This document shows, one piece after another, positions 1-4,361 of a stretch of DNA of 4,646 nucleotides. Position numbers and translations under genes: made by a program. Origin of the DNA: a virus (taxonomy: Duplodnaviria > Heunggongvirae > Uroviricota > Caudoviricetes); IMG/VR virus record IMGVR_UViG_2541047713_000005, one strand, 5' to 3'. The notes under the pieces are model-generated. The model saw only the letters and a list, made by a program, of their open reading frames with translations, was not told where the DNA came from and did no database searches. Numbering within the stretch: the first letter of the stretch is position 1; each line of letters begins with the position of its first letter.

Positions 1-1506
1 TCTGCAAGCGCGGCGGCTGCTTCTGCCACTGCATCAGCTAACAGTCAAAAAGCAGCAAAAACCAGTGAAACCAACGCAAAGGTGAGCGAAACAGCGGCTG
101 CGAACTCAGCGAAAGCATCGGCAGCAAGCCAGACGGCAGCTAAAGCAAGCGAAGATGCAGCCAGAGAGTACGCAAGCCAGGCTGCGGAGCCGTATAAATA
201 TGTCTTACAGCCGCTGCCTGATGTGTGGATACCATTTAACGATTCGCTGGATATGATTACGGGCTTTTCGCCGTCATATAAAAAAATTGTTATTGGTGAC
301 GATGAAATAACGATGCCTGGCGACAAGATTGTTAAGTTTAAACGTGCATCGAAAGCAACCTATATTAACAAATCTGGTGTGCTGACAGAGGCTGCCATTG
401 ACGAGCCACGATTTGAACGTGATGGCCTGCTTATTGAGGGGCAAAGAACTAATCTTCTGCTTAATTCAACAAATCCATCTAAATGGAATAAGTCAGGCAA
501 TCTGGAACTCACAGAAATATCCACGGATTCTTTTAATTTTACTTATGGGAGATTTACTGTAAAAGATACTCTTATTGGTCAGACAAGTGCTATTAATATC
601 GTAACGGTTTCTGGCAGTAAAGGGTTTGATGTCACAGGTGATGAAAAATATGTGACCATTTCATGCCGTGTAAGAAGTGATGTTGAAAATGTAAGGTGTC
701 GTTTAAGATTTGAACACCATGATGGTTATACTTACACTTTTTTGGGAGATGCTTACCTCAATTTATCAACACTTGTAATTGATAAAGCTGGTACTGCTGC
801 AGACCGTATTATTGCAAAGGCTGTAAAAGATGAGGTTACTGGTTGGATTTTCTATCAGGCTACAATTAATGCACTAGATACAGAGAGCATGATTGGTGCG
901 ATGGTTCAATACGCTCCTGTAAAAGGTTCAGGCACAGCATCTGGAGACTATCTGGATATCGCAACTCCACAAGTGGAAGGTGGATCAAGTGCTTCGTCAT
1001 TTATTGTAACTGATATAACTGCAAGCACTCGCGCAAGCGATATGGTGACAGTCCCAATCAAGAATAACCTTTATAATCTTCCTTTTACGGTTCTTTGTGA
1101 GGTACATAAGAACTGGTATAAAACGCCAAATGCAGCGCCACGTGTTTTTGATACCGGCGGTCATCAAACCGGAGCGGCTATTATTCTTGGCTTCGGTCGT
1201 TCAACAGATTACGACGGATTTCCTTATTGCGATATTGGAGGAGCTAACAGACGGGTAAACGAAAACGCATCGCTTGAAAAAATGGTTATGGGGATGCGTG
1301 TAAAGTCAGAGCAGTCTACGTGCTCAGTAAGTAACGGGCATATATCCAGCGAAACAAAAACCACATGGTCCTGTATTCAGAACACCGCAATTATCCGTAT
1401 TGGAGGCCAGACTACAGCCGGGTTACGTCATTTATTTGGTCATGTCAGGAATTTCAGAATATGGCACAAGGCATTGACTGATGCTCAGGTGGGGGAGTCA
1501 ATCTAA
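1..1506 (+). CDS. Phage tail fibre protein, 5'-partial (start lies upstream of window); Ala/Ser-rich repeat shaft, distal domain ending in a LamG/concanavalin-A-like signature
   Basis: Frame 1 is open from nt 1 (SASAAAASATASANSQKAAKTSETNAK...) with no stop until TAA at 1504-1506. The 'M' at 82 in the ORF track is an in-frame GTG, not a real start. The N-proximal A/S/T/E/K-rich imperfect repeats are typical of side-tail-fibre shafts. The C-terminus ...LRHLFGHVRNFRIWHKALTDAQV resembles the C-terminal consensus of LamG-like lectin domains (recalled, not searched). GC-rich for the first ~200 nt, AT-rich afterwards. Confidence 0.85.
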   Translation, partial: SASAAAASATASANSQKAAKTSETNAKVSETAAANSAKASAASQTAAKASEDAAREYASQAAEPYKYVLQPLPDVWIPFNDSLDMITGFSPSYKKIVIGDDEITMPGDKIVKFKRASKATYINKSGVLTEAAIDEPRFERDGLLIEGQRTNLLLNSTNPSKWNKSGNLELTEISTDSFNFTYGRFTVKDTLIGQTSAINIVTVSGSKGFDVTGDEKYVTISCRVRSDVENVRCRLRFEHHDGYTYTFLGDAYLNLSTLVIDKAGTAADRIIAKAVKDEVTGWIFYQATINALDTESMIGAMVQYAPVKGSGTASGDYLDIATPQVEGGSSASSFIVTDITASTRASDMVTVPIKNNLYNLPFTVLCEVHKNWYKTPNAAPRVFDTGGHQTGAAIILGFGRSTDYDGFPYCDIGGANRRVNENASLEKMVMGMRVKSEQSTCSVSNGHISSETKTTWSCIQNTAIIRIGGQTTAGLRHLFGHVRNFRIWHKALTDAQVGESI

Positions 1507-1787
1507 TGAAAGATTTAACACTCAAATTTGCCGACAGGGCCGACTTTTCGGCCTTTATGGATAGCACTGGCTATTATGATGACGAGTCGATGCAGGATGA
1601 TATTCTTATTGACGTGATAGGTAACGTGTACAAAGAAACCGGAGAACTGACTGAAGATGGCGAACCGGTATGTGTTAAGGAAGACGGATATTTTGTAAAC
1701 GTGCGCATCATTAATGATTCGCAAATATCGTCATTATTCGATGAATACGTGGTTGCTGTTGAGCATCAACTTCGTGGCTGGATGTGA
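1506..1787 (+). CDS. Hypothetical small acidic protein (93 aa), translationally coupled to the upstream fibre gene; possible fibre chaperone or adaptor
   Basis: ATG at 1506-1508 overlaps the fibre stop (TAATG). Uninterrupted 93-codon frame, acidic composition (many D/E). The downstream gene starts 10 nt after its TGA stop, giving an operon-like arrangement. No family recognised by eye. Confidence 0.6.
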   Translation: MKDLTLKFADRADFSAFMDSTGYYDDESMQDDILIDVIGNVYKETGELTEDGEPVCVKEDGYFVNVRIINDSQISSLFDEYVVAVEHQLRGWM

Positions 1788-1796
1788 GGAAGAAAA

Positions 1797-2837
1797 ATGG
1801 CTACATCGACAGTAATTCCTGATGACATCAAAACGCAAAAATCCGACGTTAGCAAATTAAAAAACGATCAAGGAAGCTACGCAACAAAATTATATGTAGA
1901 CAGCAAAGATAAATTCGTTGGTGACTGCAATGTAATCTATGATCAAAAAACATTGCCAACAACTGGAACTATATTTGGCGGTAAGCTCCGCTTAACTCAC
2001 AGGACTGGTGGAACGGAGGACGCGTATAGTGAACTATATCCCAAAAAAAATATAGATGGTACTAGTAACACAATGGCGCGCCTTAACCTGAACGATAACG
2101 GGACAAACATTTGCTGGGACTTTACCAACCTTTATGGCGGTACGATGATTTTTCCCGGTAGCGGCGGATACCTCAAAATGGGTAACTGCCTTATGTCATA
2201 CAGCAAGCGTGGAAGTAACGCGCTTATTAAATTTGATTACACCGACACATTACAGATCAAATATGCCAATCATGGGTCAACCATGACATTAAACACACAG
2301 GGAACCGCTTATGCTGGTGTTACTGCTCAATTGTGGGGCAACACCAGCCGTCCTGTTGTTTATGAAGTCGGTGTTGATGGTGGCGCTTATATGTTCTATG
2401 CGCAGAAAAATACCGATAACACCTATATGTTAAGCGTTAATGGTGCATGTCATGCCACCGCATTTAACCAGCATTCCGACCGGGATCTGAAAGACAACAT
2501 TCAGGTGATCGATAATGCAACCGACCGCATCCGTAAAATGAACGGCTATACATACACGCTTAAAGAAAACGGTATGCCCTATGCTGGTGTCATTGCACAG
2601 GAAGCTCTGGAAGCAATCCCAGAAGTTGTAGGTTCCGCAATGAAATATCAGGACGGTGCAAGCGGATCGGAAGGTGAAGAAGGTGAACGTTATTACACAG
2701 TAGATTATTCTGGTGTTACTGGCTTGCTTGTTCAGGTAGCCAGAGAGTCAGACGACAGAATAACAGCACTGGAAGAAGAAAACGCAGAATTAAGACAAAG
2801 ATTATCTGCAATTGAGGCGGCGCTTGCGTCTAAATAA
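1797..2837 (+). CDS. Short tail-fibre tip / receptor-binding protein with C-terminal intramolecular chaperone (peptidase S74-type) auto-cleavage domain
   Basis: SD GAGGAAG at 1786-1792, 6 nt before ATG 1797. Residues ~170-215 (AQLWGNTSRPVVYEVGVDGGAYMFYAQKNTDNTYMLSVNGA) resemble the conserved distal segment of P2 gpH / T4 gp37-type fibres (from memory). Residues 227-232 S-D-R-D-L-K (Ser codon at 2475-2477) have the Ser/Lys i,i+5 spacing of the endosialidase-chaperone catalytic dyad. The C-terminal helix ITALEEENAELRQRLSAIEAALASK is typical of this domain. Confidence 0.85.
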   Translation: MATSTVIPDDIKTQKSDVSKLKNDQGSYATKLYVDSKDKFVGDCNVIYDQKTLPTTGTIFGGKLRLTHRTGGTEDAYSELYPKKNIDGTSNTMARLNLNDNGTNICWDFTNLYGGTMIFPGSGGYLKMGNCLMSYSKRGSNALIKFDYTDTLQIKYANHGSTMTLNTQGTAYAGVTAQLWGNTSRPVVYEVGVDGGAYMFYAQKNTDNTYMLSVNGACHATAFNQHSDRDLKDNIQVIDNATDRIRKMNGYTYTLKENGMPYAGVIAQEALEAIPEVVGSAMKYQDGASGSEGEEGERYYTVDYSGVTGLLVQVARESDDRITALEEENAELRQRLSAIEAALASK

Positions 2838-2843
2838 TATTAA

Positions 2844-2864
2844 GGGGCCGAGCGCCCCGTTTTA
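2844..2864 (+). terminator. Putative intrinsic terminator after the fibre operon
   Basis: GGGGC (2844-2848) / GCCCC (2854-2858), an all-GC 5-bp stem with a 5-nt loop, followed by G-TTTT-A (2859-2864), 7 nt downstream of the TAA stop at 2835-2837. The stem is short, hence moderate confidence. Confidence 0.45.
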
Positions 2865-2879
2865 TTGGGTAGGATGAAA

Positions 2880-3173
2880 ATGGATATAACACCTTTCCTT
2901 CATGCGCTTTGTGCTGTGGCTGCGCAGCTACTGATTGGTCTTTTTACCGGGAACTGGGCTTACGGGGCGATAGCCGGTTGTACGTTCTTCATTGCGCGTG
3001 AACACACCCAGGCAGAATATCGCTGGATTGAAATGTTCGGGCATGGCAAGCGAATGAATATGCCGTGGTGGGGCGGTTTTGATCCGCGCGCGTGGGATGT
3101 GGCAAGCCTGATGGATTTTGCTGTGCCGGTGGTGGCGTGTCTGCTGGTCTGGCTGTTGGTTAATCGTGGGTGA
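2880..3173 (+). CDS. Hypothetical small integral membrane protein (~97 aa, 2-3 predicted TM segments)
   Basis: ORF open from TTG 2865; in-frame ATGs at 2874 and 2880. ATG 2880 has an AGGA (2871-2874) 5 nt upstream and is preferred. Hydrophobic stretches FLHALCAVAAQLLIGLF, AYGAIAGCTFFIA and LMDFAVPVVACLLVWLLV. About 55% GC, unlike the AT-rich fibre genes. The antisense ORFs over this region lack such features. Confidence 0.55.
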   Translation: MDITPFLHALCAVAAQLLIGLFTGNWAYGAIAGCTFFIAREHTQAEYRWIEMFGHGKRMNMPWWGGFDPRAWDVASLMDFAVPVVACLLVWLLVNRG

Positions 3174-3183
3174 AAAAAGGTGA

Positions 3184-3312
3184 GCTGTATATGCAACGGA
3201 GGAAGAAACTCCGTTGCTGGAAGCCTGGAAGAAGTATCGGGTGTTGCTGAACCGTGTTGATACATCAACTGCACCTGATATTGAGTGGCCTACGAACCCT
3301 GTCAGGGAGTAA
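3184..3312 (+). pseudogene. tfa: 3' remnant of a tail fibre assembly gene (tfa); no start codon, ~42 codons
   Basis: Frame 1 reads [42 protein letters not shown] directly after a TGA at 3181-3183, with no in-frame ATG/GTG/TTG. It matches the C-terminus of lambda-type Tfa (…[26 protein letters not shown]…, recalled). Relative to copy 2 it carries a 9-nt in-frame deletion. Confidence 0.75.
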
Positions 3313-3366: not shown

Positions 3367-4035
3367 CTATTTTTTCCCTGAAGCGGAAAACATTACTACA
3401 GTACCTTGAACCTTGGTTTTAACATTCTCGAAATGCTCTGAGAGTATATGTGTTAAGCCTTCTTCGGAATCTTTTGTGTTTGAAAAGATGCCTTTCTGAT
3501 TGTAAATGCGCATCAGTTTTTGACCGAAGCTATTGTGCACAACTCCATCGCCAAGAATTGTGGCTCCGTATAGAGTTCCATCGTCAGTTAAGGCCTGCGC
3601 CGCATTGCGTATTACACAGCTTTTTGTAGATATATTTCCAGGCAGGCAGTGAAGAAGGTAAAACATGGAAATGGAATCAAATTGACCATGTAACGCCGCG
3701 GGATAAGGTTCAAAAACATCATGGCTAATTTTATGTTTAATTTTTGATTCCCCAGCCCTTGTAGATGCCGCGTTCAGGCTAGCTTCGTTCAAATCCATTA
3801 AAGATATCAGACTACTCTCAGGTACGTGAGTAAGGTAAAACCCAGTTCCAACACCAATATCCAGATGGTTGTTACCTACATGTTCCAGAAAGTGTGGAAG
3901 AAGGTGTTCCTTTGTAGGACATCCCCATGCAAGCCGATTTGATACTCCCAAAACCCACCAGTCATAAAGCTTTAGGGTAAGTGGTGTGTAAATTTTAGCC
4001 CCATCATCTGTGTTTTTTTTCATTGATTTCACCAT
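3367..4035 (-). CDS. Class I (Rossmann-fold) SAM-dependent methyltransferase, probably not a DNA methyltransferase
   Basis: Motif I LDIGVGTGFY (the hh-D-h-G-x-G-x-G SAM-binding loop), a downstream acidic residue in ISLMDLNE, and a motif II-like FDSISMFYLLHCLP. No D/N/S-PP-Y/F/W motif IV. Stop TAG is the complement of 3367-3369. Two candidate starts: ATG at 4035 (no SD) and ATG at 4023 (GGTGA 5 nt upstream), the latter giving 218 aa and more likely. About 40% GC. Confidence 0.85.
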   Translation of the reverse strand: MVKSMKKNTDDGAKIYTPLTLKLYDWWVLGVSNRLAWGCPTKEHLLPHFLEHVGNNHLDIGVGTGFYLTHVPESSLISLMDLNEASLNAASTRAGESKIKHKISHDVFEPYPAALHGQFDSISMFYLLHCLPGNISTKSCVIRNAAQALTDDGTLYGATILGDGVVHNSFGQKLMRIYNQKGIFSNTKDSEEGLTHILSEHFENVKTKVQGTVVMFSASGKK

Positions 4036-4091
4036 GTTATAGTTTTATTTGTGAATTAAATCAATTATGGCGATGAATTACAAGGGGTTAA
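4036..4091. promoter_or_regulatory. AT-rich divergent intergenic region, putative promoters for the methyltransferase (-) and truncated tfa (+)
   Basis: A 56-bp AT-rich spacer between divergent starts. Minus strand: candidate -10 CATAAT (complement of 4064-4069) with a weak -35 TTTAAC 17 bp upstream. Plus strand: TATAGT at 4038-4043 and TTGTGA at 4049-4054 are possible elements. Read by eye, not scored. Confidence 0.3.
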
Positions 4092-4361
4092 ATGCTGCCG
4101 CAGCATAGCGATATTGAAATAGCCTGGTATGCTTCGATACAGCAGGAGCCGAATGGCTGGAAGACCGTCACCACACAGTTCTACATCCAGGAATTCAGTG
4201 AGTATATTGCGCCACTGCAGGATGCTGTAGATCTGGAAATCGCAACGGAGGAAGAAAGATCGTTGCTGGAGGCATGGAATAAATATCGGGTATTGTTGAA
4301 TCGTGTTGATACATCAACTGTACCTGATATTGAGTGGCCTGCAAATCCTGTCAGGGAGTAA
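4092..4361 (+). CDS. tfa: Tail fibre assembly protein, N-terminally truncated (89 aa; corresponds to the C-terminal half of lambda-type Tfa)
   Basis: SD AAGGGG 4-5 nt before ATG 4092. The C-terminus [53 protein letters not shown] aligns closely with the lambda Tfa C-terminus (…[53 protein letters not shown], from memory). Lambda-type Tfa is ~190 aa, so the N-terminal domain is missing. Confidence 0.8.

Follow-up and report, generated by a model that had tools for sequence, protein, structure and literature searches.

A 346-residue S74 chaperone-bearing protein as a likely distal subunit of a composite side tail fibre in an Escherichia coli lambdoid prophage

How a short fibre tip that carries a chaperone domain of its own, but no long shaft, could become part of a virion is the question raised by a 346-aa gene in the viral DNA examined here (4,646 bp, referred to below as the window). 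The first-pass annotation had described this gene as an orphan tip cassette lacking any N-terminal anchor or virion-attachment region. The window represents the tail-fibre end of a lambdoid E. coli prophage. It is 98.9% identical to the chromosome of E. coli strain Ecol_316, in which a lambdoid prophage has been inserted beside ompW and trp; the counterpart of the window is located at the right end of this prophage, downstream of the tape-measure gene, J and lom. The following genes and sites of the window are considered in this study:

1..1506, plus strand: last 501 codons of the proximal Stf-like side tail fibre gene, which extends past the window start
1506..1787, plus strand: 93-aa protein, constant companion of the proximal fibre (phrog_1361, E 7e-46)
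1797..2837, plus strand: putative 346-aa distal fibre subunit, stop codon included (phrog_4563)
2844..2866, plus strand: GC-rich hairpin GGGGC-CGAGC-GCCCC (2844-2858), then a T-run, GTTTTATT (consensus match only)
2880..3173, plus strand: 97-aa membrane protein with two predicted TM segments (phrog_1443)
3193-3312 and 4092-4361, plus strand: truncated tfa gene fragments (C-terminal part of PF02413)

The 346-aa gene belongs to a common, already annotated kind of phage gene. Its ORF opens with ATG and is preceded by a Shine-Dalgarno-like GGAAGA within the 9-nt upstream spacer, and the “tail fiber protein” family phrog_4563 matched the product over its full length (346/346 positions, E 4e-213). 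With coverage of at least 80% of the gene as the threshold, it was found in 637 of 5,426 complete E. coli genomes (12%). Comparison with the allele of phage PhiR11_1 gave a dN/dS value of 0.17 for the gene as a whole and of 0.055 for the chaperone domain, and the gene is thus under purifying selection. Within the encoded protein, the following elements were distinguished:

1797..1841, plus strand, residues 1-15: conserved N-terminal motif MATSTVIPDDIKTQK, proposed docking element (alignment)
1821..1901, plus strand, residues 9-35: coiled-coil-like stalk with the heptads DIxxLKxDVSxLK (AF2 helix)
1911..2069, plus strand, residues 39-91: hypervariable patch, first beta-rich domain (Ecol_316 comparison)
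2265..2462, plus strand, residues 157-222: T4 gp34-like beta domain, just before the predicted cleavage site (4uxe)
2475..2834, plus strand, residues 227-346: Peptidase_S74 intramolecular chaperone domain (Pfam, profile and AF2)
2475-2477 and 2490-2492, plus strand: codons of Ser227 and Lys232, respectively

Proteins of the Peptidase_S74 family carry a domain that templates trimer folding and then cleaves itself off. The presence of such a domain in the 346-aa protein, with Ser227 and Lys232 as its dyad, had been suggested from the sequence, and both parts of this assignment were borne out. Pfam Peptidase_S74 (PF13884) was found by profile search at residues 227-278 (E 5.8e-14; score 52.6 bits, cut-off 22; positions 1-57 of the 58 in the profile), and the two residues are located exactly where they had been placed, within NQHSDRDLKDNI (SDRDLK), Ser227 being the first position of the profile and Lys232 lying five residues further. 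Each of them is at least 90% conserved in a 36-sequence homologue alignment, and the S-x4-K spacing is identical in nine distal types. The domain makes up the last 120 residues of the protein, with a long C-terminal helix (residues 304-344, pLDDT 80-88 in the AF2 model), and a search of the PDB with the alignment profile retrieved the chaperone-bearing C-terminus of S16 gp37 (6f45, E 4.8e-7). The S74 profile, the Ser-x4-Lys dyad, the C-terminal position and the long terminal helix are all shared with the endosialidases and T5 pb1; the difference lies in the passenger, which here is a 226-aa mini-fibre and in those proteins is a large tailspike or a fibre of ~1,260 aa.

The mature part of the protein comprises only 226 aa, which agrees with the earlier statement that a long shaft is missing. 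The tip and chaperone region recurs in long fibres (phrog_6578 and phrog_5668): by PHROG match, residues 129-342 correspond to the C-terminal ends of two fibres, 1,210 and 1,567 aa long. The AF2 monomer model of the whole protein was mediocre (mean pLDDT 63.8), as would be anticipated when a single chain of an intertwined trimer is modelled. In addition to the helix at 304-344, a helix was predicted at residues 10-29, and the segments 58-110 and 151-214 were beta-rich. The stalk finishes in a YATKLYVD collar motif, and the number of heptads behind the N-terminal motif varied among the four distal homologues compared. In the Foldseek search with this model, the best match, a weak one, was T4 gp34 (4uxe_A, probability 0.96, E 0.039), and it was uninformative as to the tip. 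The alignment profile matched the repeated beta domain of T4 gp34 (4uxe) in the PDB over residues ~170-222 with E 1.1e-8, and the same structure was obtained with phmmer. W180, G181 and R185 are invariant in this domain in the 36-sequence alignment; per-column conservation within the 346-aa family was uninformative, most of the sampled sequences being near-identical.

The alleles of the gene differ chiefly at residues 36-125. Over the 4.6 kb shared by the window and Ecol_316, 51 mismatches fell into a single patch of ~160 nt at 1911-2069, and only one was located elsewhere, outside the 346-aa gene. This clustering marks the beta-rich segment of residues 39-91 as fast-evolving and probably as the candidate specificity determinant of the tip. 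A diversity-generating retroelement (DGR) was considered as the source of the patch and rejected, the mismatches being spread over all base classes with no repeat seen. Because all base classes are affected, the patch looks instead like the product of short-patch recombination; no donor for it was present among the loci compared, the best of which reached 81% identity.

The N-terminus of the protein requires a reading different from the one first given to it. Residues 1-226 are matched by no model of Pfam or NCBIfam, and for this reason the anchor had been missed. Alignment revealed that the distal proteins, of 224-581 aa and with otherwise dissimilar tips, all open with M[AV]TxT[VN]IPxDIxxLK and continue with a few heptads of coiled coil. 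Within this motif, M1, T5, I7, D10, I11 and K15 do not vary, and conservation at P8 and L14 is 90% or more. Over the 36 pairs formed by nine distal types, the mean identity was 70% for residues 1-15 and 34% for the rest of the mature part, the latter value being near background for that measure. Residues 1-8 had a pLDDT below 50 in the AF2 monomer model, and the predicted helix 10-29 comes next. Thus, the 346-aa protein does possess a conserved N-terminal module, common to otherwise unrelated distal fibre proteins, and the description of it as a protein without an N-terminal anchor or attachment region cannot be maintained.

The genomic context of the motif is equally constant. A scan of IMG/VR with the motif yielded 177 confirmed loci, and in 80/80 of the loci kept, which are closely related to one another, a homologue of the 93-aa gene was present no more than 420 nt upstream. 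A tblastn search with residues 1-45 (E <= 1) returned 41 phage records, and in every phage in both tblastn tables the motif starts 10-20 nt downstream of the 93-aa gene. The conservation of this N-terminal element across five phage groups seems not to have been spelled out previously; the junction between proximal and distal subunits has no domain model and seems to lack an explicit description.

Comparison of ten loci showed a fixed gene order with tight spacing, namely a proximal fibre of ~650-800 aa, a protein of ~92 aa and the distal protein. The carriers of this module include the lambdoid phages 2G7b and PhiR11_1, the Tequintavirus members FGS017 and IrisVonRoten (gp22/23/24), the Drexlerviridae phage swan01 together with three metagenomic contigs, Dhillonvirus KarlBarth and Nonagvirus JenP2; in Tritos and HannyBb the module was recognized by nucleotide similarity over the same stretch. 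Among these carriers, 2G7b, Tritos and HannyBb are viable phages. The proximal fibres of the module have at least four unrelated N-terminal anchors and one common end module of ~430 aa, which starts with LQPLPDVWIPFNDSL, and the ~92-aa proteins are 29-54% identical to each other. The 346-aa gene is therefore no orphan, being the third member of a fixed three-gene module that occurs in five phage groups. Published virion proteomics of swan01 (PMC6563131), with five proteins detected and none of them from the module, was uninformative in this respect. Additionally, records of “Campylobacter” and “Listeria” phages with an Escherichia-type module were encountered, which are probably mislabelled or contaminated.

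Upstream of the 346-aa gene, the first partner is a full-length fibre, as had been supposed: in the nearest genome it has 794 aa, with PF08400 phage_tail_N at residues 5-134. In this protein, the lambda Stf N-terminal anchor is followed by SETNAK repeats rich in Ala, Ser and Thr, and these by a globular module of ~430 aa. It was matched by phrog_1419 (E 2.5e-252) and, over residues 437-638, by NF048003 GTA_spike_fiber, and it is 71% identical overall to the fibre of Tequintavirus FGS017, a T5-like Salmonella phage, the two being near-identical over the last ~430 aa. The lectin-like tip ascribed to this fibre received weak support, from a Laminin_G_3 match below the gathering cut-off (E 0.0044) and from the galectin-like domain predicted in IrisVonRoten gp22.

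The second partner, the 93-aa protein, is encoded by a gene that overlaps the proximal fibre gene and ends 9 nt before the 346-aa gene. Its homologues were found by tblastn in 181 phage records, each directly after a fibre gene; a scan of the GTDB species representatives with the 93-aa profile gave three loci only and added no independent lineages. The AF2 model of the protein has a compact alpha/beta fold (pLDDT 83.9), and the structural match search with it gave no informative match and no known connector. Since the protein is kept where the distal gene is absent, we lean towards an assembly factor or a cap for the proximal module, with a connector as the alternative. In Vequintavirus JeffSchatz, a representative of rV5-like myoviruses, a 110-aa homologue (gp27, locus positions 4001-4333) is encoded behind a lateral fibre gene of 1,479 aa, and the gene after gp27 has no N-terminal motif; in this arrangement, therefore, the small protein travels with the fibre and not with the distal subunit.

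The distal gene is an optional add-on that can be swapped between phages. Close relatives lack it: in ev243, a member of the genus of 2G7b, in phage 21 and in 4A7, the 92-aa gene is followed by the membrane-protein gene, with the distal gene absent. At the same time, of the IMG/VR prophages with near-identical 93-aa genes, some continue with the 346-aa type and others with a mini type of 234 aa. The N-terminus of this mini type is the same; its heptads are more numerous, its tip is tiny, and it also ends in an S74 domain. Thus, of the earlier proposal that a tip cassette had been captured by recombination, the recombination is supported, although inside the module and with a tip shared with long fibres, and the orphan cassette is not. 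In KarlBarth, a motif-bearing 98-aa ORF overlaps a 196-aa Phage_tail_C_2 ORF by 8 nt (gp30/gp31, locus positions 4770-5649). The pair may represent a distal fibre that has been split or frameshifted and whose tip is not of the S74 type.

Taken with the published IrisVonRoten model, the constant module and the common N-terminal motif support, at the level of comparative genomics, the earlier suggestion that the 346-aa protein attaches to the upstream fibre as a separate polypeptide. We consider it likely that the side tail fibre is composite and that the protein serves as its distal receptor-binding subunit, which is exchangeable and docked on the Stf-like fibre. From the co-inheritance of these genes across phages with otherwise different tails we infer the attachment step, and the whole assembly could proceed as follows. 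The 794-aa Stf-like protein would be the proximal subunit, anchored to the tail by its lambda-type N-terminal domain and continued by the coiled coil of the shaft. By analogy with its family, the C-terminal S74 domain of the 346-aa precursor would drive trimerisation and folding of the small beta-rich tip, and would then cleave itself at Ser227, with Lys232 as the base, to leave a mature chain of 226 residues. The mature trimer would dock via its N-terminal 15 residues and the short coiled coil onto the proximal C-terminal module, with the 93-aa protein perhaps acting as an assembly factor or a connector in docking; as the docking partner, the 93-aa protein is a candidate besides the proximal C-terminal module. 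Once docked, the tip would add a second binding specificity, probably for the O-antigen or an LPS glycan, a receptor class extrapolated from IrisVonRoten, whose tip is unrelated.

Other destinations of the protein have to be weighed against this one. It could form an independent short fibre on the tail tip or baseplate, held by J or associated proteins and not by the Stf-like fibre; this would suit a separate polypeptide with its own Shine-Dalgarno sequence, and phages with separate long and short fibres do exist. However, the motif is common to phages with unrelated tail tips and with four proximal anchors, and apart from the proximal C-terminal module and the 92-aa protein it has no constant partner, so that we regard such a fibre as unlikely. 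The protein could also remain outside the virion altogether, as a recombination reservoir or as decaying cargo. The tfa remnants downstream do record past recombination at the locus, the distal gene is missing from the close relatives ev243 and phage 21, and the portal gene of the Ecol_316 host prophage is truncated, because of which the copy of the 346-aa protein in that prophage may never be assembled. Nevertheless, the low dN/dS values, lowest in the chaperone domain, the full-length gene in 637 complete E. coli genomes, the conservation of the N-terminus and of the gene spacing, and the occurrence of the module in the compact virulent Tequintavirus, Drexlerviridae and Nonagvirus phages all make an unassembled cassette improbable.

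The remaining alternatives concern the 93-aa protein, which could be the true adaptor, a knee-cap like T4 gp35/gp36 that is seated on the proximal fibre and binds the distal N-terminus in place of the fibre itself. The strict gene order with a spacer of only 2-12 nt, the confident compact fold and the GenBank label “tail fiber protein” of IrisVonRoten gp23 are in favour of this role. It is, however, rather doubtful in view of the retention of the protein without the distal gene in phage 21 and ev243, its presence also in Vequintavirus, the outcome of the structure search, which gave no known connector, and the PhiR11_1 copy, which is only 29% identical while the distal N-terminus is almost unchanged. 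A more intimate link, namely a fusion of the 93-aa and 346-aa products through read-through of the TGA stop, might be suspected from the fact that in the window the two ORFs are in one frame (1785-1799), with TGA and GGA AGA AAA between them, and from the in-frame 9- or 12-nt spacers of 8/11 lineages. Yet the spacers of the other three lineages are 11, 11 and 2 nt long, a Shine-Dalgarno sequence lies in the spacer, the distal N-terminal Met is invariant and no read-through signal was identified; a fusion of this kind is highly improbable, and the in-frame arrangement probably reflects just Shine-Dalgarno spacing.

Docking of the 346-aa protein on the Stf-like fibre, the preferred reading, also agrees with what is known of other phages. 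According to the BASEL papers, two or more proteins may make up the lateral fibre in T5-like and small siphoviruses, and the closest known system is the gp22-gp23-gp24 lateral tail fibre module of IrisVonRoten (Bas32). An AlphaFold-Multimer model of this phage sets gp24 on the proximal fibre gp22, for which a galectin-like domain is predicted at the C-terminus, and the phage needs the O16 O-antigen (Humolli et al., BASEL completion, 10.1101/2024.09.12.612763). The two systems have the same three-gene order, a homologous proximal C-terminal module, homologous 92-aa proteins with 37-41% identity, matching distal N-terminal motifs (MVTKTVIPTDITKLKNE) and distal proteins that both end in an S74 domain. 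The differences are that the window module sits on a lambda Stf N-terminal anchor and that its distal protein has 346 aa against the 574 of gp24. When the 346-aa protein was compared by BLASTP with gp24 and with the homologue from FGS017, alignment was limited to the chaperone region and the N-terminal motif; the 346-aa protein showed no similarity to the Gp12-like RBD1 region of gp24, ~230 residues being absent, and gp12 was not among the results of the PDB searches. Judging by these alignments, the tip is probably a simple one and not the T-shaped variant composed of RBD1 (Gp12-like) and RBD2 (T5-like).

The branched LTF of the T5-like phages DT57C/DT571-2, in which LtfB joins the virion only through LtfA and provides dual O-antigen specificity (Golomidova 2016, PMC4728585; PMC10713586), offers a more distant parallel. 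Here too a second fibre protein has its own S74 domain; the corresponding attachment in the window system would follow the same principle. In contrast, the LtfB N-terminus resembles phiEco32 gp15 and LtfA has a gp14-like region, DT57C has no 92-aa gene, and LtfA also carries a chaperone domain. Neither DT57C nor phiEco32 was among the 41 phage records matched by residues 1-45 in tblastn at E <= 1.

The lambda Stf-Tfa fibre occupies the same position (J - lom - stf) and has the same PF08400 N-terminal anchor. In the window, however, the distal half of the fibre is replaced, no intact Tfa (PF02413) gene is present downstream but only fragments, and folding of the tip is proposed to depend on the intramolecular chaperone domain instead of Tfa. 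The fragment at 4092-4361 corresponds to positions 75-130 of 131 in the Caudo_TAP profile, and the tfa genes are labelled partial by PGAP in Ecol_316; these fragments are the remnants of a classical Stf-Tfa arrangement that was displaced by the T5-like module. Between them, on the minus strand at 3367-4035, lies a gene for a class I SAM-dependent methyltransferase (phrog_2132), a moron-like insertion that 2G7b and ev243 have too. The hairpin and T-run 3' of the distal gene form a terminator-like site by consensus match, and the hairpin is kept in 2G7b and PhiR11_1. The 97-aa phrog_1443 protein ends the fibre module in the lambdoids phage 21, ev243, 4A7, 2G7b and PhiR11_1, being retained with or without the distal gene. 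PADLOC gave no significant match for the flanking small genes, that of the 97-aa protein included, and the Rfam search returned no matches.

No new mechanism is revealed by this locus, which represents a lambdoid, short-tip form of a known composite fibre. It does follow that the side fibre of many lambdoid prophages in E. coli is not the textbook Stf-Tfa fibre but a T5-like one with two subunits. The N-terminal motif can aid the annotation of distal subunits, which are currently labelled “tail fiber domain-containing protein” or “hypothetical”, as well as the prediction of prophage host range and the design of chimeric fibres. Moreover, we put it at somewhat better than even that the motif and the proximal C-terminal module, perhaps together with the 92-aa protein, constitute a universal plug-and-socket for distal cassettes. 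If so, at least five groups of Escherichia and Salmonella phages would be able to mount, swap or drop distal cassettes on one common fibre. A phage could thereby alternate between dual specificity and a single one, the latter provided by the globular end of the proximal fibre, which may be lectin-like, and the junction would provide a ready-made handle for host-range engineering.
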